Virus record (IMG/VR): IMGVR_UViG_3300047508_000198 | Location: 1-64,000 of that record | DNA length: 64,000 nucleotides | Source: a virus | Reading direction: 5' to 3' (one strand) | Translations under genes and position numbers: made by a program | Shown: positions 6,674 through 47,235 of the stretch, piece after piece | How positions within the stretch are numbered: the stretch's first letter is position 1 | How the letters are laid out: each line of letters begins with the position of its first letter | The notes under the pieces: model-generated | The model's database searches: none | What the model was told of the DNA's origin: nothing | Seen by the model: the letters and a program-made list of their open reading frames with translations, nothing else

Positions 6674-7015
6674 TCAGGGAGTCACGACGTCCGAGGCGAA
6701 CAGCGCGGCCTTCGCGGCCGGGCTGATCGTGGAGTACTGGGCGTCGGACAGCACCACCACGGCGCTGGGGCCGTAGCGCAGCCCGTTGGGCAGCACGACA
6801 TCCTTGACGGTGCTCTTCAGCGTGATGGTGCGGGACACGTTCCCTCCTCCTGCGGTGTGCACCCCGGGGGCGGTGAGCAGCGTCGAGATGGCACGCGGGG
6901 TCAGCTGGCCGTACTCGTCATCGGTCAGCGTGACCACGGCCCCGGCCTGGTACCGGCTGCCGTTCGGCAGGCAGACATCCCGCTTCCCGGCGGCGATCGT
7001 CACTGCGTACGTCAT
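6674..7015 (-). CDS. Small virion-type protein with an internal duplication
   Basis: Two copies of DV.LPNG.RY...AVV.L.D..Y. Confidence 0.65.
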   Translation of the reverse strand: MTYAVTIAAGKRDVCLPNGSRYQAGAVVTLTDDEYGQLTPRAISTLLTAPGVHTAGGGNVSRTITLKSTVKDVVLPNGLRYGPSAVVVLSDAQYSTISPAAKAALFASDVVTP

Positions 7016-7029
7016 GTGCTATCTTCCTT
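7016..7029 (+). promoter_or_regulatory. Candidate extended -10 promoter for array 1
   Basis: GTGCTATCTTCCTT, identical to the 14-mer upstream of minus-strand genes at 1729-1742 and 3548-3561; points into the array. Confidence 0.55.
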
Positions 7030-7034
7030 AGTCA

Positions 7035-7868
7035 GAGTCATGGCCCGGCACGGCATGGCTCGCCTTTGGTGGCTCGGCGGTCACGGCAGCGCCCAGCGCG
7101 GATTGCATAGCGTGGCTTGGCCCGGCGAGGCAGTCAGGGACAGGCAGGGTCAGGCGAGGACGGGCCTGGCGGAGCACAGCGAGGCAAGGCAGTCCAGGCC
7201 CGGCTTGGGACGGAAAGGCTAGGCGTGGCTCGGCAAGGCCTGGCGCAGCCCGGCCCGGCTCGGCAGTCATGGCGAGGAATTGGCACGGCACGGCTAGGCG
7301 TGGCGTGGCAAGGCGTGGCCAGGCAGTCAGTGCTCGGCTGCTCTGGGCGTAGCTCGGAATGGCGACGCACAGCGGGGCTGTCAGGGAAGGGCGCGGCTCG
7401 GCAAAGGGGGCATAGCTCGGCGGCACATGGCCGTCGCGGTATTGCGTGGACGGCGAGGCGGCGCTGGGCGAGGCAGTCGCAGCATGTCCTGGACCGCGGG
7501 GCGGTGCGGCGCGCGGCTTGGCGGCGCGGCGCACGGCCTGGCACGGCAGTCGTGTCAAGGCCGGGCGGGTCACGGCAAGCCATGGCGAGGCCGGCTCGGC
7601 GAGGCCCGGCAAGGCCTGCGAGGGCGAGGCGCGGCCTGGCACGGCCGTCGAGGATTGGCTGGGTGCAGCTCGTCTCAGCACGGCATGGCGCGGGATGGCT
7701 TGGCAGTCAGCGCTGGGCATCGGCACGGGCAGCGTGGTCAGGCTGTCATCACGCGGCGTGGCTTGGCGAGGCGGGTCGGGTCTTGGCGAGGACCGGCATG
7801 GCTCGGCAGTCGTCGCAAGGCAAGGCTGCTCATGGCATGGCCTGGCCGGGCAGGCACAGGAGGCGGTC
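7035..7868 (+). repeat. GGC-NN pentamer array 1 (candidate guide-RNA array, about 14 units)
   Basis: 5-nt periodic GGCNN with GGC[ACGT]GTC separators at about 7076, 7129, 7188, 7262, 7322, 7376, 7429, 7472, 7545, 7643, 7702, 7741, 7805, 7862. Confidence 0.85.
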
Positions 7869-7893
7869 TCCATCGGGGGCACCGCCTCCTTTG
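7858..7893 (+). terminator. Hairpin closing array 1 (possibly bidirectional)
   Basis: AGGAGGCGGT (7858-7867) pairs with ACCGCCTCCT (7881-7890), followed by TT. Confidence 0.65.
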
Positions 7894-7903
7894 CCGTCCG
7901 GGC

Positions 7904-10900
7904 CTAGTCGAACAGGTCCCCGTCGTCATCCGGGCCGCCCAGCCCGGCCGTCATCGCCATCACCGGGGCGGGCTCGCCGGAGAAGCTCGGGGCCGCCCGC
8001 GAGGCGGTCCTGGGCGCCATGGTCCGCGGGTACCGGGGCTGCGCCTGGCTGACCGCGGCGGCCTTGGTCACCTGGCCCAGCGTGCCGATCTCGCGCTCGA
8101 TGTCGTGCAGGCTCAGGGACGCGTCCCGCTCGATCATCGTGGCCAGCTCCAGCTCATCGCCGCGGACCAGGCCCGCGGTGACCCGCAGCTTGGCCAGCCG
8201 GATGGCGGCGAAGGTCCGGGCGCCGCGCTCGTCCTCGGGGGACTGCGGGCCGCTGAGCTGCTGCCGGGCCGCGATCGTCCACGGGAACGCCGTGCCGTCA
8301 TTGCCCGCGCCGCCGATGCCGGGGCCCTGCGCGGCCAGCGGGTTCGGGTTGACCCGCACGTCGGTCTCGATCCGGCGCTGCTCGATCGGCACGCCGCCGT
8401 CCTGGGACGGGTTGGTGCCCTGGACCGGCGCGGTGACGTCCTGCAGGTTGGTGGCCGGAGCGGTCGGGATCTCCACCCCGGGGGTGAGCGCCGTGGTGGT
8501 CGCCTCGGCCGGCACGGCGGTCATCGAGCCGGGCGTGGCGCCGGGACGGGCCGGGTCGTCCTCGGTGTGCCCGGGGCCGCGGGCCAGGCCGTTACCGCTG
8601 CCGGTGGGGGCGCCGCTGGCCAGGGCCTCCTCGGTCGTCTGGCTCGGCGGGGCCTGCGGCGGGTCGTCCACCGGCTGGGCCGGGTTGGCCAGGTCGGCCT
8701 GGCGCAGGATCTGGTCCAGCTCCTCGGTGACGCCCGCCAGCGAGGCGATGAAGCTGAGCCCGGCCGAGAGCTTCGCGTTCTCACGGCGCAGCTCGTCGAT
8801 AACGCGCTGCTGCGCGGTCACGGCCGCCGTCGCGGCAGTGCGCTGCTTGGTCATCTTCTTGCCTCCGGGGCGCTCGTCCTCGTCCTGATCCTTCCCGGGG
8901 GAGCCGCCGAAGCCGGGCTCTTCCTCCTCGGCCTCCTGCATCTCCTGGCCGCCCTCGGCGCCCTGCTCTTCGAGCTGCTCGCCCTCGGCCTGCTCCTCGG
9001 CGCCTTCCTCTTCCAGCTCCTCGCCTTCGAGCTGCGCCTCCTCGGGGTCCTCCTCGCCCGGCTCGGCCAGCTCCTCCTCGTCGCCCGTGGGCTCCAGCAT
9101 CCCCTGGCCGGGGGCGGTGGCATCGGGCTGCACGCCGGGCACCCCGTCGGGGGCGATCTGGTCCGGGTGGAACAGCTGCTCGTCGGCGTCCTCGCCGGAG
9201 CCAATCGGCTCCTGGGGGTTCATGCCGGGCTCGGCGCCGGGGATCAGCTGCTCCTCATCGGCCGGGCCCTCCGGGTACGGCGAGGTCTCCTTGCCCTCCT
9301 CCAGCTCCTGGCGCATCATCTTGGCGTGCTCGATGTCCGGGTCGCGGAAGATGTCCGGCGGCGCGACGAAGCCGCACACCGGGCAGCGCTGGCCCTTGAA
9401 GACGTCCTGGTCCCCGCACACCGGGCAGGCCTCCGGCCGCAGCGTGTCCACCGACGGCGGGACCCGCAGCGGCGGGTCCGCAGCGGTGTGCTGGAGCGAG
9501 GCGTGCATGGTCTGGCCTTCCATCTCGGGGTGGTACTTGCGGACGTGCTCTTCCCAGCGCTTCTGGTCGTTGATGCCCTTCTGGACCCGGCCGCCGCCGC
9601 CGAAGGCGTTCTTGACCGATGAGTCCTCGGCGTCGTTGACCCGGATCTGCCGCAGCCAGGTGGTCGCCTGCATGCGCTCGGGGGTGACCTTCTGGCCGGT
9701 CTCGGCGGAGACCTCATCCGCGGCGTCGAAGTACTTCTGCGCGATGTGGTTGTAGTAGTGCTGCTTGTCGATGGGGGCGCTGACGGCCTCCTTGTCGGTC
9801 AGCCGCTTGCCGGCCGCCACGCTCATCGCGTGCCGGTCGATGACGACCTGGCGGTTACCGGACTCGGTGTCCTCGTCGGTGTTGCCGCCGTGCTCGATCA
9901 GGTGGGCGAATGCCCGCGTCTTCGGCCCGTTCAGGACCTGGGAGTGGTGCTCGCCGGCCAGGATGCGCCGGGCCGGGTTGGTGTGCATGTCCATGATCGG
10001 GCCGTCGCCCGTGCTGTGGTTCAGGGCCCGGCCCTCGTGGAACGAGCGCGCAGCGTGGAACATGTTGGCCGGCCACTTGGTCCGCGGCGAATAGGCCGAC
10101 AGCAGCCCGGCACCCATCGCCGCGTCGCCGCCCGCGATGCCCTTGGCCACCAGGTGCGCGTCCGGGTACCAGTTCTTGCCCTGGGTCTTCTCGTCGTCGG
10201 TGGAGTCGTACCAGGCGGCCTTGATGTTGTCCTTGCTCACCGGGTTGGCCTGGAACCACGGGTGATCGGCCGCGTCCTTGTAGCGCGGGCCGGCCGCCTC
10301 GCGCCGGGTCAGCTCGCCGGGCAGCAGCGCGGTCTTCTGCTTGGCGAACTTCCCGGTCGCGATCAGCATGGAGTTCTGGCCCCGCGTCTCGGTGGTCATC
10401 GCGTGCCTCGCAGGTCCGCTGAACATCCGGGAGTGCGCCAGCCAGGCGGCCTCCTCGCCGTGCCGGTCGAAGGACCGGCCGGTAGCGGCGTGGCCGAAGG
10501 CGTCGTGCACGGCCCGGAACTTGTCGTTGGTCTCGTCGTCGAAGAACGTGTGCGGGCCGGTGGCGCGGGTGGACAGCACGGCCAGGTGCCGGTTCCTGGC
10601 CAGGTCCTGGGTCATCTCCAGGTGGTTGGCGTACGGGTCGTGGTCGACGGCCTCGACGTGCACGCCCATCGCGCCGGTCAGGTGGTCGTACTGGTGGTGC
10701 ACCTGACGGGCCATGTCGGCGAAGGCGGCGTGCGCGCCCGGGTCGTTCATCGGCAACGCGTGGTAGGCCTGCGCGAGGCGCCGGATCCGGCCGGGGTTCG
10801 TCTCGATGTGGCTGTACTGCTCGGCGTGCGGGTCCGGCAGGCCGATCTTGGCGGCGTAGGAGCGGGCCCCCTCCTGGGCGGCGCGCACCGGGCTGACGGC

Positions 10901-27229: not shown

Positions 27230-27366
27230 TGTTCGGCAACACAGTCCAGCTCGACCGCCCGAACGACTACGGGATCGCGATCAGGGACCTGCCCGGCAAG
27301 GTCACGCCGTGCTGGAAATTCGGCGTCTCGGTCGAGGCCATGATGGCCGGGGCGCTCCCGGTCTGA
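27229..27366 (+). CDS. Mini-ORF 3 (45 aa)
   Basis: MFGNTVQLDRPNDYGIAIRDLPGKVTPCWKFGVSVEAMMAGALPV. Confidence 0.55.
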   Translation: MFGNTVQLDRPNDYGIAIRDLPGKVTPCWKFGVSVEAMMAGALPV

Positions 27367-27392
27367 CCCGCGGCACGGCGCGGTCGCCGGGT

Positions 27393-28958
27393 GACGGCCG
27401 CGCCATGCCGGGCCCTGCCTTGCCGATCCGAGCTGCGCCCTGACACTCCTAGCCCTGCGTGGACTGCCGAGCTGCGCCGTGCCCTGCCTTAAACGGCCCA
27501 GCCGCGCCATAACTGCCGAGCCGAGCCGAGCACGGACTAGCCAAGATAACCGAGCCGCGACGGCCGGGCCATGCCAAGCTGTGCCCAGTCAAGCCACGCG
27601 ATGACTGCCGAGCCATAACGCGCCCAGTCGAACCACGCCATGCGATGACTGCCTTGCTGTCCCGAGCTGATCCTTGACCAGCCGAGCGACGACGGCCTGG
27701 CCATCCCTGCCGAGCCTGGCCGGGCCTGGCCCTGAAGATCCGTGCCAAGCCGCGACGGCCACGCCCAGCCTCGCCAAGATCAGCCGCGCCCCGACTGCCA
27801 AGCACAGCCGCGCCGAACTGCGCTGTCCAAGTGAAGCACTGCCCTGCCTATCCGGCCATGCCGCGCGATGCCTTGCCTTGCTACCCGCGCTATCCGCGCC
27901 GCGCCTATCCAGCCAGGACCGGCGGCGCCATGCTACGCGATGCCTCACGACAGCACGCGATACCGCGCCAGCCATGCCATGCCGCGCCTCGCTATGCCGC
28001 CCGTGCGCTCCCAGGCCTAGCCATGACGGCCTGGCCATATCTGGCCATGCCACGCCTTGACCAGCCACGCACTGAACAGCCGTGCGCTAACTGCCTCGCC
28101 GCGCCGCGCCAAGACCGACCAGGCCTTGCCAAGCCGGGCCTTAACGGCCTCGCCATGCCCTGCCGTGCCTCGCCAAGCGATGCCTAGGCTGCCGTGCCGA
28201 GACGAGCCTGTCCCTGACGAGCCCGGCCTCACCTTGGCGGCCAAGCCAAGCCATGCCCAGCCTCGCCAAGCCTCGCGAGCCTGACCCCGCCCTATGCTGC
28301 CCTGGCGAACCCAGCCTGGACTGCCACGCCGTACCCAGCCGAGTCGCGCAGAGCCTTGCACCTCCTGCCACACCTGGCCGAGCGGCCCTCGCTGTCCCAG
28401 CCGGGCAACGCCTCGCCATGCGCCGACAGCCTTGCCGAGCCGAGCCGCACTCAGCGCAGCCCTGCCAACCCGATCCTGGCCCTGACGGCCGAGCCCAGCT
28501 GTGCCAAGCCGTGACTCGCCTCGCCAAACCCGGGGGCGCCATGCCATGACGGCCCTGCCGAGTTGCGCAATGCCGAGCGATCTGTGCCGCCCAAGCCAAC
28601 CATGCCTTCCGGCCTTGCCCAGCGCTCCATGCCGTACCCTCCATGACGGCCTTGCTGCGCACAGCCAGTCCATGCCAAGCCCCGCATCGCCTCGCCATGA
28701 CTGCGTTGCCCCGCCCGACCTGGACTGGACAGGCCTCGACTGCCTCGCCCGGCCTCGCCTAGCCTGGCCTTGACCCGCCATGCCTTGCGTCAACGGCCTT
28801 ACCCCGCCGGGACGGGCTCCGCTCCGCCTGGATCAGCCCCGCCTTGCCTCGACTGCCTCGCCTGGCCCGGCCTCGCCAAGCCGTCCTTGCCGGGCCTTGA
28901 CTGCCACGCCTTGCCATGCCGATCCGGAACGCGCCCAGCCTACGAAGCCGAGCCTTGG
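27393..28958 (-). repeat. GGC-NN pentamer array 2 (about 27-30 units)
   Basis: Plus strand reads NNGCC with GACTGCC/GACGGCC separators (27393, 27462, 27559, 27603, 27647, 27691, 27754, 27793 ... 28851, 28899); starts about 10 nt after the portal stop. Confidence 0.85.
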
Positions 28959-28968
28959 CTATCTAAGT

Positions 28969-31140
28969 TTATAGCACATCCTCGTCCGGCAGCTCGTCGC
29001 CCTCCTTGACGCCGAGCTTGCCGCGGACGCCCACCGTCCTCGGCGCCTTGTACTGAGGCGGGGCATCATGCGTCTCCCACTCGCGCACCTCCTGCAGCTG
29101 GCCGTCAGACCGGTAGACCGGGGTCTGGTGCTCCTCGTCCCCGTGCACCGGGTACGACCGCGCCTTCGCTGCCTCGCGGGTGCGGGCGGTGCGGCGGAAC
29201 AAGCTGGCCTCAGACGGCATGCCCTCGCGCTCCTCGTCGGACTCCTCCGGCCGGTCGGACTCCTCGCCGGGGCCGGGCTCCTCCTCGCCGCCCTCCTCCT
29301 CGCCCTCGGGCGGGGCCATCGGGTCCTCGCCCTCCATCTCGGCGTCCTCGGGCCCGGGGGCCAGCGCCAGCAGCGGCGGGCCGGGCTCGGTGCCCAGGCG
29401 GGGGATGGGCAGGCCGCCCATGGAAGCGCCTGCGGGCATGCCCTCGACCTGGGCGTAGGCACCGAAGTCGTCCTGCAGGTCCTGGGGGATCGGGTAGCCG
29501 CCGTCCTTCAGCGCGATGTAGGCCCGCTTGCGGGTGTCCTGCTCGGCGACGATCTGGTCCACCGCCTCGTCCTGGGACCGGGCGACCTCCTCGTCCAGGT
29601 CGATCTCCAGGTTCCGGGTCCGGGTGCGCTGGGAGATCGGGATGCCGGCGGCGCGCAGCGCCTCGATGAACTGGCGGGTCGCGTCCTCGTCCTTCAGGTT
29701 CAGCACCTGGAACTTGCGGTCGGGGACCAGCAGCTTGGGCTGCTCGACGAGATGCTTCTCGCCGGTCTCCTCGTCGGTCTCCAGCACCTCCTCCATGATC
29801 ACGTAGCGCTTGCCACCGTGCTCGCGGTAGGCGTAGTGCTCCTGGGCCTCGGCCACCACCAGGGCCCGCTGCCGGAAGTGCCGCGCCTGGAACTTCTGGT
29901 ACTTGGTCATCAGCATGGTGACCAGTTCCTTGTTCAGCGCGTCGGCCGCGTAGGTCTGGCCGGACTGGGCACCCATCAGGAACGTCCGGGACAGGCCGAA
30001 CACCTGCAGGATCGAGTCCTCGATCCGCTCGAAGTCGGGGGTCAGGTCGGGCATCTGCTCGCGGCCCAGCACCGGCAGCATCTCGACGGCGAAGTTGTAG
30101 ATCAGCGCGCGGAAGTCGCCGGCCAGGGCCGCGTCCAGGGCCAGCTCGAAGTTCTCCAGGTCGTCATCGGTGGGGATCCACGGCTGGGAGGTGCCCAGGT
30201 CGGTCGCCGAGGCGCCGAGCTTGCACAGGATCAGCGGCGTGTAGAGCCGGTCGGCGATCGAGTCCAGCGCGGTGTTGAGCATCTCCTTCTGCAGCATCGA
30301 GCGCATCGCCCGGGTCAGCAGCGGCACGCCGCGCACGTTGAACGTGTCGCCCCTGAACTTCAGCTGCTTCAGCAAGATGTTGCTCACCGGCATGAAGGTG
30401 TTCTCGGCCGTGTAGGCGGTCAGCTCGGGGTACTCCTGGACCAGCCGGTTGTACTCCCAGGCGGGCTGGCGGGTCTGCAGGATCTGCCGGATCGTCCAGG
30501 GCAGCCGGATGAAGAACCGCGGCTCCTTCAGGAACGGGCTGCGCTCGACCTTGACGTCATCGGGGTTGAGCAGCTCCTCGTCGTCCCAGATGCCGAGGTC
30601 CTCGTTGAACGTGGCGAAGCACCAGGCCTCGCCCGAGGTCCAGTACTCCCGGCCGATGTCGACGGTGAACTCCTCGTAGTCCAGGTGCTCCTCGCCGAAG
30701 AACAGGTCGCCGTAGAAGTCCTCCAGCCGGGAGTCCATGCACTCCAGGTGGTCGCCCATGGTCGGGAACTTGGAGAAGATGTCGACACACGAGCCGATGA
30801 TCGGGTCGGTCTGGTACAGCAGCCGGCAGAACGCCCGGACCTTGGCCAGCTCCTCGTTCTGGCTGAAGTCGTAGGGCAGGTTGTTCTGCCGCCAGTAGAA
30901 CAGCGGGTCGCGCGGGCGGCCGGTAGCGAACTGGATATCGCCGAACCCGCCGCCCGCTCCGCCCGCGCCCCCGGCACCGTACGCGGCAGTGCGCCGGTTG
31001 ACCGAGCGGTTCTTGCGGGCCTCGGCCACCTCGGCCGTCATGGACCCGTCCGCGGCCCCGTAGGCCAGCATCCGGCTCATCCCCTCGGAGACCCGGCGGT
31101 CGCGGTCGAGGGCGGCGGTGGCGCTGAACCTGACCTTCAC
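28969..31140 (-). CDS. Portal protein (cluster C-like)
   Basis: RPRDPLFYWRQNNLPYD...IADRLYTPLIL.KLG...ALDAALAGDFR resembles the cluster C portal as recalled; 723 aa. Confidence 0.85.
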   Translation of the reverse strand: MKVRFSATAALDRDRRVSEGMSRMLAYGAADGSMTAEVAEARKNRSVNRRTAAYGAGGAGGAGGGFGDIQFATGRPRDPLFYWRQNNLPYDFSQNEELAKVRAFCRLLYQTDPIIGSCVDIFSKFPTMGDHLECMDSRLEDFYGDLFFGEEHLDYEEFTVDIGREYWTSGEAWCFATFNEDLGIWDDEELLNPDDVKVERSPFLKEPRFFIRLPWTIRQILQTRQPAWEYNRLVQEYPELTAYTAENTFMPVSNILLKQLKFRGDTFNVRGVPLLTRAMRSMLQKEMLNTALDSIADRLYTPLILCKLGASATDLGTSQPWIPTDDDLENFELALDAALAGDFRALIYNFAVEMLPVLGREQMPDLTPDFERIEDSILQVFGLSRTFLMGAQSGQTYAADALNKELVTMLMTKYQKFQARHFRQRALVVAEAQEHYAYREHGGKRYVIMEEVLETDEETGEKHLVEQPKLLVPDRKFQVLNLKDEDATRQFIEALRAAGIPISQRTRTRNLEIDLDEEVARSQDEAVDQIVAEQDTRKRAYIALKDGGYPIPQDLQDDFGAYAQVEGMPAGASMGGLPIPRLGTEPGPPLLALAPGPEDAEMEGEDPMAPPEGEEEGGEEEPGPGEESDRPEESDEEREGMPSEASLFRRTARTREAAKARSYPVHGDEEHQTPVYRSDGQLQEVREWETHDAPPQYKAPRTVGVRGKLGVKEGDELPDEDVL

Positions 31141-38705: not shown

Positions 38706-38969
38706 ATGAGGCCGGCCCAGCCGCCCTTCCTCGGCGGCGACAAGGCCGAGGTGGTCGAGCACGACCCGGCCACCCGGCGGCCGGTAGCGGGCGGCAAGGT
38801 CATCCCGGTGACCGTCGTCGACCTGACCGACGGCGACTTCACCTGGCTGTTCATCCGGGTCCGGATGCCGGACGGCGGGCACGCCGTGTTCTGGCGGAAC
38901 TCGCGCTTCCTGCGCTGGCCGCAGATCGAATGCCGGTGGCGGCTGGAGGCGGTCAGCGATGCCAGCTGA
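38706..38969 (+). CDS. Hypothetical protein
   Basis: AAGGA RBS. Confidence 0.5.
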   Translation: MRPAQPPFLGGDKAEVVEHDPATRRPVAGGKVIPVTVVDLTDGDFTWLFIRVRMPDGGHAVFWRNSRFLRWPQIECRWRLEAVSDAS

Positions 38970-39246
38970 GCCGGACCTGAGCGCCATCCGGGAGGCGCTG
39001 GCCATGGCCGGCTACCACAACGGCCGGGTCCAGTCCTCCGCCATGCAGGCCACGATCTTGCTGAGCGCCTACGAGGGGACGATCGCCGACGACGAGGTGC
39101 CGCTGTGCCCGCCCGGCGACCCGGCCTGGTTCCAGCAGGCCGTCACCGTCCTTGAACAGGCTGACCAGGAATGCGCCCGGCTCAAGGTGCAGCTCCTCAC
39201 CGCCCAGCTCCGGATCCTCCAGCTGATGCTCGCGGGCAAGCCCGAT

Positions 39247-39275
39247 TTGGAGTTATCAAGGTTTATTGATATTCT
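39247..39275 (+). promoter_or_regulatory. SigA-type promoter with operator, inside ORF 38959-40041
   Basis: TTGGAG-TTATCAAGGTTTATTGA-TATTCT. Confidence 0.7.
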
Positions 39276-39309
39276 GGTGCCAGACACCGAGACACACCAG
39301 GAGACACCG

Positions 39310-40041
39310 ATGACCACAGGACCCGCCCCCAAGCTGCTCGACCGGGTACGCAAGCTGCTCGCCAAGGCCGAGGCCGAGGGCGTCACCCCGCCGGAGGCCG
39401 AGGCCCTGACCGCCAAGGCGGCCGAGCTGATGGCCCGCTACGGCATCGACCGGGCCCGCCTCGGCGCACACTCGCAGCAGGACCGGCCCGGCAACCGGAT
39501 CATCGACATCGACAACCCGTGGGCCCAGGTCCGCGCCCACCTGCTGGCCGGCCTGGCCGGGGCGATGAACTGCCAGTGCGTGCTGCTGAGCACGAGCAAG
39601 CCCGGCGCCCGGATCCACGTCTTCGGCTACGCCTCCGACCTGGAGCGCGCCGACATCATGTACACCTCGCTGCTGCTCCAGATGGCCAGCGCGCTGCGCA
39701 AGACGGCCGTCCCGATTGGCGTCCGCAGCGTCCGGGCCTGGCGCCGGAGCTTCCTGCTCGGCTTCGTCACCGCGGTCATCCTCCGGGTCAAGTCAGCCGA
39801 GGAACGCGCCCGCGGCGTGGCCAAGACCGAGGACTACGGCAAGGACGGGCCGAGCACCGCGCTGGTGCTGGCCGACCGCGCCGTGGTCATCCGCACCCAG
39901 CTGCAGCAGGCCTACCCGACCACCCGGCGAACCCGGATCACCTACTCCGGCCGCGGCTACAGCTCCGGCTACGCCCAGGGCCAGCGGGCCGACATCGGCC
40001 AGTCCGGGCTGAAGTCCACGCGGGCCCTGGGCCGGGGCTGA
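39310..40041 (+). CDS. DUF2786-domain protein
   Basis: KLLDRVRKLLAKAE...EAEALTAKAAELMARYGID and RRSFLLGF; AGGAG RBS before ATG 39310; in frame with an upstream extension from 38959. Confidence 0.8.
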   Translation: MTTGPAPKLLDRVRKLLAKAEAEGVTPPEAEALTAKAAELMARYGIDRARLGAHSQQDRPGNRIIDIDNPWAQVRAHLLAGLAGAMNCQCVLLSTSKPGARIHVFGYASDLERADIMYTSLLLQMASALRKTAVPIGVRSVRAWRRSFLLGFVTAVILRVKSAEERARGVAKTEDYGKDGPSTALVLADRAVVIRTQLQQAYPTTRRTRITYSGRGYSSGYAQGQRADIGQSGLKSTRALGRG

Positions 40042-43403: not shown

Positions 43404-43440
43404 GCTCTGCCTCCCTGGGCGTCCTACTTCTTCCCAGGGG

Positions 43441-45509
43441 GCAGAGCCATGCCTGCCGCGCCATGCACTGCCGATCTATGCCGAGAGCCGCCATACGATG
43501 CCGAGACGGCCACGCCATGCCGAGCCTTGCCGGTCCTTGCGAGGCCGCGCCGTGCGATGACTGCCACGCCTCACCCAGCCCCGCTTCGCCTCTCCAGGCA
43601 AGGGATGCCATGCGGCGACTGCCGGGCCTGGCCGGGCCGTGCCATACCGAGCGATGACTGCCGGGCCTGGCCTAGCCATGCTGCGCCCTGCCTGGACTGG
43701 ACAGGCCACGCCGAGACTGCCATGCAACGCCGGGCCCAGCTGCGACTAGCCGGGCCTAGACAGGACTGCCAGGCCAAGCCCACCGTTGCCACGCCACGCG
43801 TGTCCGGCCTGGCCATGCCGAGCCGTACCCTGACACGCCTAGCCAACCGAGCCCTGCCGTGCCTCGACTGCCCAGCCCGGCCTTGCCCAGACGTCAATGC
43901 CAAACCTAGCCAGGCGGGCCGTAGCCTGCCGAGCAAAGCTGTGCTGCGCCTACGCTAGCCGAGCCGAGCCCTGCCTAGACCGCCCGGCCAGGCCACGCCG
44001 TGCCCAGCACTGGCTAGCCGTGCCCGGACAAGCCGCGACCGTCCATGCCCCGACTGCCTCGCCGAGTCATGCCTCACCCGGCCGCGCCCTGCGCTGACTG
44101 CCCCGCAACGCCTATCCCAGCCATCCCGCGCCGCGACGGCCTCGCTGAGACGAGCCTCGCTATGCCGCGCCCTGCGCTAACTGCCTCACCTCGATTTGAC
44201 GCGCCTGGCCCCGCCGAGCCACGCCGTCCCTTGACTGCCAGGCCACGCCGTACCCTGACTAGCCCAGACGGGCCTCGCCTTGCCTCGACTGCCGTGCCAC
44301 GCCCCGCCTAGCAAAGCACACGATGCCCCGCGATGCGCCGACTGCCCTGCCTTCCGTGCCGGGCCGAGCATCCCGGGCCCAGCCATTCCGAGCCCCGCGT
44401 TGCGACGACTGCCCGGCTAAGCCAGGCCTTGCAACGCCGGTCCTTGCCAGGCCTCTCCCGGCCTGGCCCAGACTGCCTTGCCGAGCCAGGCCCCGCCGAG
44501 CTGCGCCTACCCTGGCCTAGCCAATCCAGCCATGCCGAGCCGAGCCGCGCCAAGCCAAGATTGGCCTAGCCCTGACTGCCGGGCCAAGCCACGCGACGAC
44601 ATACTGCGCCCTGACCTGACTGCCTGGCTGAGCCGTACCGAGCCAGGCCGGACCATGCCTCGACTGCCGAGCCACGCCATGACCTGGCTGCCGATCCTCG
44701 CCTGGACGCGCTGCGCCGTAGGTAGCCCGGCCTGTCCATGGCAGCCGAACCGGGCTGTGCCGCGCCTAGCCACTCGGTGCCCCGCGCCGCCTCGACTGCC
44801 GCGCCTAGCCACGCCTTGCCTAATCACCCATGCCGCGCCGCGCCACGACGGCCGGACCATACTGCGCCGTCCATGCTGGGCAACACCGGGCTGTGCCGCA
44901 CGATGCCCTGACTGCCTGGCCGAGCCGTGAAGCCCCTGCTTCGCCTTGACGGCCGAGACCGGCCGAGCCATGCACTGACTACAACGCCGCGCCTTGACTG
45001 CTGTGCCAAGCCTTGCCCTGCCCGGACAAGCCACCCGATGCCTTGACTGCCTCACCACACCTTGCCTCGCCCAGCCTTCCCAGACCGCGCCTTGACTGCC
45101 GTGCCGGGCGACGCTATCCAAGCCATGCCCTGCTCAGCCAACCCAGGCCGAGCCTTGACGGCCTCGCCCCGCTGTACGAACAGCACCATGCGCCGACGGC
45201 CACGCCGAGCCGGGCTGCTCCGGGCCAAGCAACGACCAGCCCTGAGCTGCCAAGACTGCCCTGCCTAGCCGCGCAAAGCCACTCCTTGCCCCGCCTCGCC
45301 GCGAGACACCACGCGACGCCGAGACTGCCGCGCTAAGCCAAACCACGCCCGTCCCAGCGGTCGATGCTTCGCCATGCCTTGACGGCCCTGCACTGCCGCA
45401 CCCCGACCAGCCCAGACTGGCCTCGCCCAGGCTGGCCGGGCCTGGACTGCCTGGCCGCGCCAGGCCGCGCCGTGACGCAACCAGCCACGTCACGGCCCGG
45501 CCTGACGGC
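43441..45509 (-). repeat. GGC-NN pentamer array 3 (about 35-40 units), directly downstream of the Cas7-like operon
   Basis: Same grammar; separators at about 43505, 43559, 43617, 43656, 43715, 43764 ... 44233, 44287, 44574, 44618, 44662 ... 45445, 45504. Confidence 0.88.
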
Positions 45510-45986
45510 TTAGGCCTCGTCGCCAACGGCGAGAGGGCCGTCATCTTCCTCGACATCCATGGTCCGGCGGACCATGGCGATGAACTCGCTGAACATGCGG
45601 TAGCGGCGCTGCATGTTCCGCCAGTCCACTTCCATCTGGCGCCGCACCTGGGCGGTCAGCACCTCATCCCGCTGGATCTCGTCCAGCGGCACGTACGAGC
45701 GCCCCGGCACGCCAGCGGCGTGCACCGAGTGGAACACCCGGATGGACTGCACCTCACTGCGCTTGTCGATGTACTGCTCGCGCACCACGCGAACCAGCTG
45801 CCGGGCCTGCTGCAGCCGGTACTTGCGCGCGGCGACATCGTTGTTCCACTCGAACCGGCTGTGCAGCGGGTGACCCTCGGCGGCGGCGGCCGAGACAATG
45901 GCCGCCGCCGTCAGGATGCCGCCGTTCTCCTCGCGGATCTGCAGCAGCTCGGTTTCGAGCTGGCTAGGAGCCTGATCCGGCGCCAT
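45510..45986 (-). CDS. Accessory protein coupled to the Cas7-like gene (158 aa)
   Basis: GILTAAAIV.AA....HPLHSRFEWNNDVAARKYRLQQARQL resembles a phage family of unknown function; overlaps the Cas7-like stop by 23 nt. Confidence 0.75.
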   Translation of the reverse strand: MAPDQAPSQLETELLQIREENGGILTAAAIVSAAAAEGHPLHSRFEWNNDVAARKYRLQQARQLVRVVREQYIDKRSEVQSIRVFHSVHAAGVPGRSYVPLDEIQRDEVLTAQVRRQMEVDWRNMQRRYRMFSEFIAMVRRTMDVEEDDGPLAVGDEA

Positions 45987-46956
45987 CGCCGGCCTCAGCA
46001 GCCATCGCAGCGCGGTCCTCCGCGGTCAGGCCGCGGTCGGGACCGGGCTCCTTGTCCTTGACCGGCTTGGCCTCGGGCTCGGGCTCGGGCTCCTCGGCCA
46101 GGACCTCCGGCGGGGCGTCCAGCTCGGCGAAGTCGTCCATCGTCAGATGGTCTTCCTCGCCGTAGACGTCGTAGTCCACCGAGTCCAGCAGGTACATCGG
46201 GTCCAGCTCGCGGACCACGGTGACGGCGTTGCGGCCGTCGGCGATCCGGAACGTGCCGAATTCCCCGTTCCGCTCGGGCCGCCACTCGCCGACGCCGACA
46301 TTGCCGCCGCCCGCCTCGATCAGCGAGACCACCGAGTCCCGCTCCAGCAGGTTGGAGGTGTAGCCCACCATCAAGGTGGCGCTCCACCGGTAGAAGCAGC
46401 CGCGGTACCGCAGGTCCGCGGGGTGGTTGACGCCGGCCAGGCGCACGTAGTCCTCGCGCATCCGGGGGCGGCCGTCGAGCACGACCATCCGGCCGGCCTC
46501 GCTCGGCACGCTGACGCCGTAGAACGTCAGGAACTGGCGAAGCTCGGTCATCTTCACCTGCTTGCCCCAGAACCGCCCGGCCCCGATAGTCGCCATCTTG
46601 AAGGCCATGGCGGGCAGGCCGAACAGCACCTCCTCGGTCGCCGGGTCGACGCCCGCACGGTAGAGGCTGGCCAGGTACTCGCGGTGCGGGTCACGCTTCT
46701 CCGGCTGGCGCTTCTTGCCCTGCTGGGCGGCCAGCATCTGGGCCTTGGCCTTCTCGGAGAACCGGCTGACGATCAGCGGCGCGGTGCCGATGATCCGGAT
46801 GGCGAGCAGCTCCTGCCGGATCGGCTTGATGGTCAGCGCCGCGGCCGGAGCCGGGGCAGATGCCGTCGTGCGCCGCTTGACGGCTGGCTTGGCGTCGGCT
46901 CCGTTCGTACCGGTGGCGGTAGCCGCCGGGTCATCCTTAACCTGTGTTCCAGGCAT
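45964..46956 (-). CDS. Stand-alone Cas7/RAMP-like RNA-binding protein (330 aa)
   Basis: RAMP motif order: IRIIGTAPLIV, GLPAMAFKMA helix, thumb-like REDYVRL...DLRYR, WSATLMVGY, and Gly-rich loop GGNVGVGEWRPERNGEFGTF; GAGGAGGG RBS. Confidence 0.7.
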   Translation of the reverse strand: MPGTQVKDDPAATATGTNGADAKPAVKRRTTASAPAPAAALTIKPIRQELLAIRIIGTAPLIVSRFSEKAKAQMLAAQQGKKRQPEKRDPHREYLASLYRAGVDPATEEVLFGLPAMAFKMATIGAGRFWGKQVKMTELRQFLTFYGVSVPSEAGRMVVLDGRPRMREDYVRLAGVNHPADLRYRGCFYRWSATLMVGYTSNLLERDSVVSLIEAGGGNVGVGEWRPERNGEFGTFRIADGRNAVTVVRELDPMYLLDSVDYDVYGEEDHLTMDDFAELDAPPEVLAEEPEPEPEAKPVKDKEPGPDRGLTAEDRAAMAAEAGDGAGSGS

Positions 46957-47034: not shown

Positions 47035-47063
47035 ACACTATACTTACGAGCACGCACTGTCAA
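47035..47063 (-). promoter_or_regulatory. SigA-type promoter of the Cas7-like operon
   Basis: TTGACA (47063-47058)-17 nt-TAGTGT (47040-47035); a second TTGACA on the plus strand (47032) makes an inverted repeat; 5' UTR hairpin at 46991-47024. Confidence 0.7.
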
Positions 47064-47095
47064 AGAACCTTGATATTTCTGCTACGATGGCTGAC

Positions 47096-47235
47096 GTCCC
47101 CGCCCGGACACCCGCCCCTAAGGCCACGGGGCGGTTCGCCAGGTGACGCGCGTAAGCGGCAAGCGTGGTCCGTAGCCGAAACCGGAGCCGTATAGGTAGT
47201 TGGGCCAGCCTCAGTCTGGCCCGTCCGGGCGGGGC
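47096..47235 (+). ncRNA. Candidate structured ncRNA (about 140 nt)
   Basis: Perfect 12-bp closing stem 47098-47109/47223-47234; internal hairpins 47112-47134, 47149-47158 (GTAA loop), 47202-47222; TGcTACGAT extended -10 at 47080-47088. Confidence 0.55.

Follow-up and report, generated by a model that had tools for sequence, protein, structure and literature searches.

A conserved acidic protein encoded beside the vipr gene of a viral contig is very probably a VIPR accessory protein

Introduction

The closest described counterparts of the locus studied here are the systems termed Viral Interference Programmable Repeat (VIPR), phage-borne, CRISPR-like and RNA-guided DNA silencers that were published in 2026 (10.64898/2026.04.26.720920). 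A VIPR locus combines vipr, a small RAMP gene, with an accessory gene, vap, of which there are six families, and with vrRNAs composed of GGY/NN pentamers (10.64898/2026.04.26.720920). Our subject is a small gene at 45510..45986 on the minus strand of a 64,000-nucleotide stretch of viral DNA (positions 1 to 64,000 of IMG/VR record IMGVR_UViG_3300047508_000198), hereafter called the window. An original prediction, made without database searches, placed this gene between a Cas7-like gene and an array of pentamers and left unexplained how new NN units are written. The system is already published, as VIPR, and what we report on the gene leaves the picture of the system itself unchanged.

How does VIPR work? 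As laid out in the 2026 VIPR preprints, Vipr forms a polymer along the vrRNA, each pentamer taking up one protomer, with GGY hidden and NN presented. The NN pairs read double-stranded DNA, one base being skipped for every two that are read, and transcription of rival mobile elements is silenced. Each GGY is held by two neighbouring protomers; the residues of SUSP1 Vipr that hold it are H17, R138, D177, W178 and R179, of which H17 contacts the first G (10.64898/2026.04.26.720927). Arrays can be staggered, such that neighbouring vrRNAs share one base (legend of fig. S18, 10.64898/2026.04.26.720920), solo vrRNAs have been published in elements that lack vipr and vap (10.64898/2026.10.15.759431), and repeats other than GGY are mentioned in a further preprint (10.64898/2026.10.21.760802). 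Between 664 and 667 representative VIPR systems were counted from NCBI (10.64898/2026.04.26.720920). The accessible portions of these papers describe no acquisition machinery.

Among the accessory proteins, Vap1 of SUSP1 is the only one reported as tested. It is dispensable for formation of the ribonucleoprotein (RNP) and for silencing of a reporter, yet it enhances defence and is needed for plaquing on a satellite-bearing host (10.64898/2026.04.26.720920, 10.64898/2026.10.15.759431). According to the VIPR papers, deletion of Vap1 costs SUSP1 about 10^4 in plaquing on the satellite lysogen. In their accessible text, none of the Vaps is assigned a mechanism.

Results

Is the Cas7-like neighbour a Vipr? 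The gene at 45964..46956 (minus strand) encodes a 330-residue RAMP protein with homology to PHROG 4652 and to PDB entry 36pp_D, the 'SUSP1 Vipr protein'. As a single sequence it matches 36pp_D with an E value of 0.0055 (phmmer). The profile of its family (A3, 47 sequences) reaches E 6.5e-14, with profile positions 19-202 covering residues 2-188 of 202, and alignment of the family with the SUSP1 gene product by hhalign yields a probability of 98% (E 1.6e-13). Three of the five RNA-contact residues of SUSP1 Vipr are identical in the aligned protein (R138, W178 and R179 correspond to R185, W225 and R226), whereas D177 and H17 are replaced by E224 and S64. The His17 column is occupied by H in 67, N in 15 and S in 5 of 96 Vipr family members; serine is also present in L031 and L032, two of the three closest relatives of the window, and the third, L033, is gapped there. 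Besides Ser in place of His17, the window Vipr differs from that of SUSP1 by an acidic C-terminal tail of 86 residues (245-330, pI 4.05) that follows a basic core (approximately residues 37-244, pI 9.99). Typical Viprs of about 205-215 residues have no such tail.

The pentamers next to these genes were delimited by motif density and by parsing of their junctions. Array C occupies 43430..45509 (minus strand), about 2.1 kb of staggered GGC-NN pentamers with 30 junctions of the form GGC[AC]GTC, in which the G following [AC] opens the next register. In a sequence logo of the junctions, G, G and C each reach 71-97% and keep their register to either side, the register moving by one base at the junction and the NN positions holding mixed bases; 14/29 junction spacings equal 5n+4. 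The array thus fits the staggered form of vrRNAs, with neighbours that overlap by one base. Its junction, GGC[AC]GTC, is not the GGY-A-GGY of the published systems; GTC rather than GGC as the first triplet of each vrRNA is common to the window and its three closest relatives, L031-L033. We rejected the array as protein-coding sequence, given its period of 5 nucleotides and a frame that moves by one base at every junction. We also entertained the pentamer tracts as a replication origin served by an initiator and loader pair, as a centromere-like site or a terminase pac site, as the target of a TRAP-like RNA ring, as Chi-like sites, and as R-loop or G-quadruplex tracts like those of immunoglobulin switch regions; all of these were dropped after homology of the neighbouring protein to Vipr had been measured. 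Tandem Repeats Finder reported one short row only, and a tRNA scan returned nothing useful.

Three hallmarks of VIPR are present in the window: a Vipr homologue, a same-strand array of fixed GGC and variable NN next to vipr, and the synteny of vap. Like the published systems, this is a phage-borne locus of two genes, with a homologue of SUSP1 Vipr as its small RAMP protein and with GGY/NN arrays that flank the genes on the gene strand. It differs from CRISPR-Cas in that there is no repeat-spacer array (the period is 5 nucleotides), in that Rfam at gathering thresholds finds no family anywhere in the window, and in that PADLOC yields 0 matches for both the 158-residue product of the gene under study and the 330-residue protein. 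Since the 330-residue protein is Vipr and the array encodes vrRNAs, the gene that encodes the 158-residue protein is very probably the vap of this locus, vap standing for VIPR accessory protein.

This vap gene reads from an ATG at 45986 to 45510, with GAGG located 6 nucleotides ahead of the start codon. Its first 23 nucleotides lie inside the end of vipr, which confirms the predicted overlap with the Cas7-like gene, and the array begins no more than about 60 nucleotides beyond its stop codon. The sequence block singled out by the original prediction, HPLHSRFEWNNDVAARKYRLQQARQL, is found in the translation. Could the reading frame have stayed open merely by chance? The window belongs to an IMG/VR virus record of 84,944 nucleotides and about 70% G+C (CheckV completeness 53%), yet homologues occur in genomes that span 37-72% G+C. 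The protein matches PHROG 15946 with E 3.8e-24, and this is the sole PHROG matched by all 99 aligned relatives. A hidden Markov model (HMM) of the family retrieves the protein with E 3.9e-53 and finds a single copy in the record, just as there is one vipr. Among 1.84 billion cluster representatives, all of which were scanned, the family comprises 7,461 at E <= 1e-3, 652 at E <= 1e-10 and 1 at E <= 1e-30, with a usual length of about 140 residues. The 158-residue protein is the product of a real, conserved gene. In the alignment of 99 sequences W47 is invariant, and P40, L41, H42, F45, A52, R57, A61, L64, R83, Y98 and F135 are conserved in at least 90%. The sole longer relative, a 339-residue 'fusion' (P0162), proved to be an artefact in which the C-terminal part of vipr is frameshifted and runs into vap; the N-termini of P0142 and P0056 are read from arrays and look like miscalled starts.

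The protein carries no recognisable enzymatic signature, and in this respect the predicted absence of a nuclease motif agrees with searches of Pfam, NCBIfam, PADLOC and PDB profiles, none of which gave a convincing match. Pfam and NCBIfam each return 0 matches for the 158-residue protein; neither finds HNH, another nuclease or a helicase domain, the kinds of accessory domain that mark VIPR types III-V. Pfam searches with the 99 family members produce scattered single matches, none below E 0.002 and among them one weak PD-(D/E)XK at E 0.016. The PDB profile search with the family gives nothing below E 0.08, and the ESM Atlas offers unnamed viral clusters only, for this protein as for Vipr. The protein had been called basic, but it is acidic: its pI is 5.61 and its net charge -4. 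The charge is unevenly distributed, with net +3 in residues 36-70, +5 in residues 111-142 and -7 in the C-terminal tail (143-158). Across the family the median pI is 5.86; 57/99 members have a pI below 6 and 14/99 a pI above 8.

Is vap truly tied to vipr? Co-occurrence in gene neighbourhoods had been named beforehand as the observation that could overturn the assignment. With the 158-residue family we fetched 119 loci, of which 97 were non-redundant after removal of 22 (21 duplicates and L012, the window's own stretch). An open reading frame of the Vipr type is present on the same strand in 95/97, and the link to the RAMP gene and its array held. In the two loci where the HMM of the 330-residue family finds none (L088 and L102), a contig end just upstream cuts the locus. 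The search was also run in the reverse direction, with 80 loci fetched through the 330-residue clade, 46 of them new relative to the first set: 77/80 carry the 158-residue family on the same strand, and the three exceptions are L154, which is cut at the edge, L159 and L197. The family thus accompanies this Vipr clade almost obligatorily and on the same strand.

In 88 of the 95 loci vipr precedes vap, and in the other 7 the order is reversed. The genes are no more than 60 nucleotides apart in 56/95 loci and more than 100 apart in 31; usually either their translation is coupled or nothing but vrRNA arrays lies between them. Clusters of GGY-NN lie within 800 nucleotides in 78/95 loci: 41 of these have them solely downstream, 18 solely between the genes, 5 solely upstream and 14 at several of these positions. 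By the strict GGC rule arrays are found in 58/97 loci, 0 of them in the opposite orientation, and in several of the remaining loci degenerate arrays are missed by the rules. Pairwise identities of Vap and Vipr are correlated (r 0.764), and 0/999 permutations reached a value as high.

The tight spacing, the charges and the parallel divergence bear on a possible role of Vap as an assembly chaperone. Here the acidic Vap would protect the basic Vipr core from non-specific binding of RNA or DNA until this core encounters GGY repeats, as the P protein does for the N protein of negative-strand RNA viruses. A Vap of pI 5.61 (below 6 in 57/99 members) set against a Vipr core of pI 9.99 would suit such a pair, as would genes that overlap or lie at most 60 nucleotides apart in 56/95 loci and products that co-diverge. 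The proposal, however, derives purely from charge, 14/99 family members are basic, and SUSP1 Vipr is reported to assemble without any Vap. We regard a chaperone of this kind as distinctly unlikely.

Staggered junctions are widespread: at least two occur in 68/97 loci, and junction matches number 572 on the gene strand versus 17 on the other. Might Vap act in guide biogenesis, as the original prediction had considered? It could recognise the one-base-short junction (GGY-N-GKY) and set the filament boundary, or recruit a host RNase, so that single vrRNAs are cut from a long transcript. Apart from the number and strandedness of the junctions, several observations are in keeping with this idea. 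In other types a structured tail or a ribozyme marks where a vrRNA ends, a feature that staggered arrays do not have (figs S18 and S19, 10.64898/2026.04.26.720920); SUSP1, whose vrRNAs are reported to be tailed, uses the unrelated Vap1; and the near-invariant His, Trp, Arg and Tyr of the family could form a base-binding pocket. Yet clear family members accompany arrays that are neither GGY-based nor staggered, and neither Pfam (including the 99 members) nor NCBIfam reveals an RNase-like family or motif. Moreover, because two neighbouring protomers hold each GGY, the one-base shift would by itself break the filament, and no extra factor is needed; SUSP1 RNPs are reported to form from vrRNA and vipr alone (2026 VIPR preprints). 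Taken together, we find a role in biogenesis unlikely.

Arrays of other kinds deserve description, as they set a limit on what Vap may read. Family members occur in loci with GGA or GGT repeats. Others, with HMM E values of 1e-21 to 1e-26 and hence clear members, adjoin short A-N-A/NN runs with non-repeat segments between them, the order of the genes being reversed. A low-GC clade of viral and metagenome contigs (L010, L011 and L116-L119) has the order vap, array, vipr, and its separating segments are possibly structured; Rfam detected no hammerhead and no other family in eight low-GC loci. Since family members accompany both the A-N-A/NN and the GGA/GGT arrays, Vap presumably reads neither repeat nor junction. 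What stands of the earlier interpretation is that the gene is a dedicated accessory of a RAMP system whose RNA guides come from a pentamer array; of the four candidate roles that it named (guide processing, filament cap, effector and array expansion), processing and capping are weakened by the non-GGY arrays, and expansion of the array found no support.

Array expansion merits a comment of its own, as array sizes in the relatives range from about 100 nucleotides to 3.3 kb and no acquisition machinery is described for VIPR in the papers, as far as they are accessible. Both facts would be explained if Vap added or duplicated pentamer units or whole guides. The 158-residue family, however, shows no polymerase, integrase, nuclease or recombinase signature in Pfam, NCBIfam or PADLOC; arrays far from vap, and the solo vrRNAs reported without vipr and vap, persist and spread without it; and slippage and recombination suffice for changes in size. 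Array writing by Vap is extremely unlikely. The longest spacing of vipr and vap by an array that we found is that of L057 (1436-4676), on a 177-kb viral contig, where about 3.3 kb of vrRNA array separates the two genes.

Cultured phages also carry the pair. By tblastn, the 158-residue and 330-residue proteins match the same 32 phage records (27 Mycobacterium, 5 Gordonia), with the genes adjacent or nearly so; the 330-residue protein alone additionally matches 3 Pseudomonas records and 1 cyanophage record. The pair corresponds to gp51/gp52 in Mycobacterium phage Saal, after the antirepressor gene, to gp39/gp41 in Gordonia phage UmaThurman, after the excise gene, and to gp19/gp20 in Gordonia phage ODay, where the tail assembly chaperone gene and the tape measure gene flank it. 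The vipr/vap pair moves as a cassette among cultured phages. In ODay the cassette is accompanied by two helix-turn-helix (HTH) genes and resembles a mobile cassette. Short arrays are seen in carriers of the Saal kind and in Gordonia carriers (Saal, L001 3975-4220, upstream of gp51; ODay, L003 4825-4964), and the annotated 'gp40' of UmaThurman (L002 4659-4982) is a translation of the array that separates vipr from vap.

In Saal, UmaThurman and ODay the cassette adjoins repressor, cro or antirepressor genes, which would be compatible with Vap as a regulator. In that case a small DNA-binding Vap would control the VIPR operon or nearby early phage genes, or prevent self-targeting; the Vaps of types II, VI and VII are indeed predicted to bind DNA and to be winged-helix-like or HTH-like (fig. 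S21, 10.64898/2026.04.26.720920). Pfam, however, detects no HTH or winged-helix family in the 99 members, the 158-residue protein is acidic overall, and its tight co-occurrence with vipr across very different neighbourhoods fits a part of the machine better. We consider a regulatory role very unlikely.

How does the family relate to Vap1? In SUSP1, agp039 encodes Vipr, and agp038 just downstream (146 residues, YP_009199428.1) is therefore Vap1; GGYNN tracts flank the pair on both sides. Like the 158-residue protein, Vap1 is encoded directly downstream of vipr, is of similar size and has no recognisable enzyme domain. In contrast to the acidic family (median pI 5.86), Vap1 is strongly basic (pI 9.88). 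Comparison of the family alignment (A1) with Vap1 by hhalign gives a probability of 0.2%, a test of limited power as Vap1 enters as a single sequence, and BLASTP produces no alignment. Vap1 has 3 relatives in a large protein collection, versus the 7,461 representatives of the 158-residue family in a different and larger library. On sequence comparison, the 158-residue family is an accessory family distinct from Vap1; the supplementary data of the VIPR papers may already name it.

Cas11 proteins, the small subunits of class 1 CRISPR effectors, are covered by the Pfam families Cse2, Csm2 and Cmr5. None of these three is among the Pfam matches of the 99 family members. The likeness lies in a possible way of working and implies no membership: a protein of about 140 residues, encoded beside the gene of a Cas7-like backbone, could ride the filament and steady the target.

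The record contains further arrays and signals besides the locus itself. Array B (27291..29010, minus strand) follows the same grammar with 16 junctions and lies about 17 kb from vipr and vap. Array A (6991..7970, plus strand) has 11 junctions in the opposite orientation, and a fourth array with 2 junctions is located beyond the window, at record positions 84400-84944 (minus strand), where the record ends. In all, 59 recognisable junctions are distributed over four arrays in a record with a single vipr/vap pair, compared with four vrRNAs reported in SUSP1. The distant arrays resemble the published solo vrRNAs (10.64898/2026.10.15.759431). Arrays of the window were located by motif density, those of its relatives with the strict GGC rule or as GGY-NN clusters. 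Twenty-five guides parse cleanly across the arrays of the record, 14 of them in array C with 8-14 units each. A search of 24 parsed guides against about 1 Mb (the record itself with arrays masked, plus the fetched loci; skips of 0-3) revealed no target above shuffled controls; at skip 1 the best-match fraction is 0.780, versus 0.787 for shuffled guides.

A strong RNA hairpin of 76 nucleotides (45440..45515, minus strand; inverted repeat I5) separates the stop codon of vap from the first junction of the vrRNAs. Its fold energy is -52.3 kcal/mol (z -4.34), and 0/200 shuffles fold as well; it could protect the end of the mRNA or mark a processing site. Upstream of vipr, a promoter-like TTGACA-17 nt-TAGTGT at 47035..47063 (minus strand) was read by eye from the sequence as a putative signal; a consensus scan does not report it because the -10 element agrees with TATAAT at 3/6 positions only. 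The intergenic stretch 47080-47235 (plus strand) stands back to back with this site. Near the locus, a 360-residue protein with DUF2786 and DUF7168 (38959-40041, plus strand; PHROG 421) is the product of an ordinary phage gene of unknown function.

Discussion

What, then, might the accessory protein do? As an overall explanation, we see an even chance that the 158-residue protein is the vap of a VIPR system and acts as a non-enzymatic partner of Vipr that strengthens silencing. The mode of action is drawn by analogy with Vap1 and is offered tentatively: the protein, without enzymatic activity, may bind Vipr or the target-bound filament and strengthen or prolong silencing in vivo. Vap would be made in step with Vipr, its binding partner would be Vipr or the filament on its target and not the repeat sequence, and it would have no part in the processing, capping or writing of guides.

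Several observations weigh against this explanation. The analogy with Vap1 is weak, given that the two proteins have no detectable similarity and opposite charge (pI 5.61 versus 9.88), and it may not hold. Staggered junctions in 68/97 loci make a junction-related role possible for most members. Two loci retrieved through Vipr, L159 and L197, show no Vap within the DNA examined. Finally, the correlated identities of Vap and Vipr are what any two linked genes are expected to display and are no proof of contact.

A bolder version of the partnership can be put forward, though it is unlikely in our judgement. The acidic Vap family could constitute a second, structurally distinct class of VIPR partners that binds the Vipr backbone. 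It would do so in the manner of the small subunit Cas11, locking the RNA-DNA triplex, or as a chaperone that sets filament length, and it would enable a single transcript to serve dozens of guides in staggered arrays. If true, the largest VIPR clade would gain a part so far missing from its mechanism, and the small subunits of CRISPR effectors would have an early analogue.

The role of the Vaps is left open in the 2026 VIPR papers, and the discussion of the cryo-electron microscopy paper defers their characterisation. To this our analysis adds the PHROG 15946 family, which is separate from the tested Vap1, acidic, and near-obligate for its Vipr clade. The family is very common in metagenomes, with 7,461 cluster representatives compared with the 664-667 VIPR systems reported in the preprint. 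It is also found in cultured phages whose hosts are Mycobacterium smegmatis and Gordonia terrae; these phages are genetically tractable, and the function of the family is directly testable in them.

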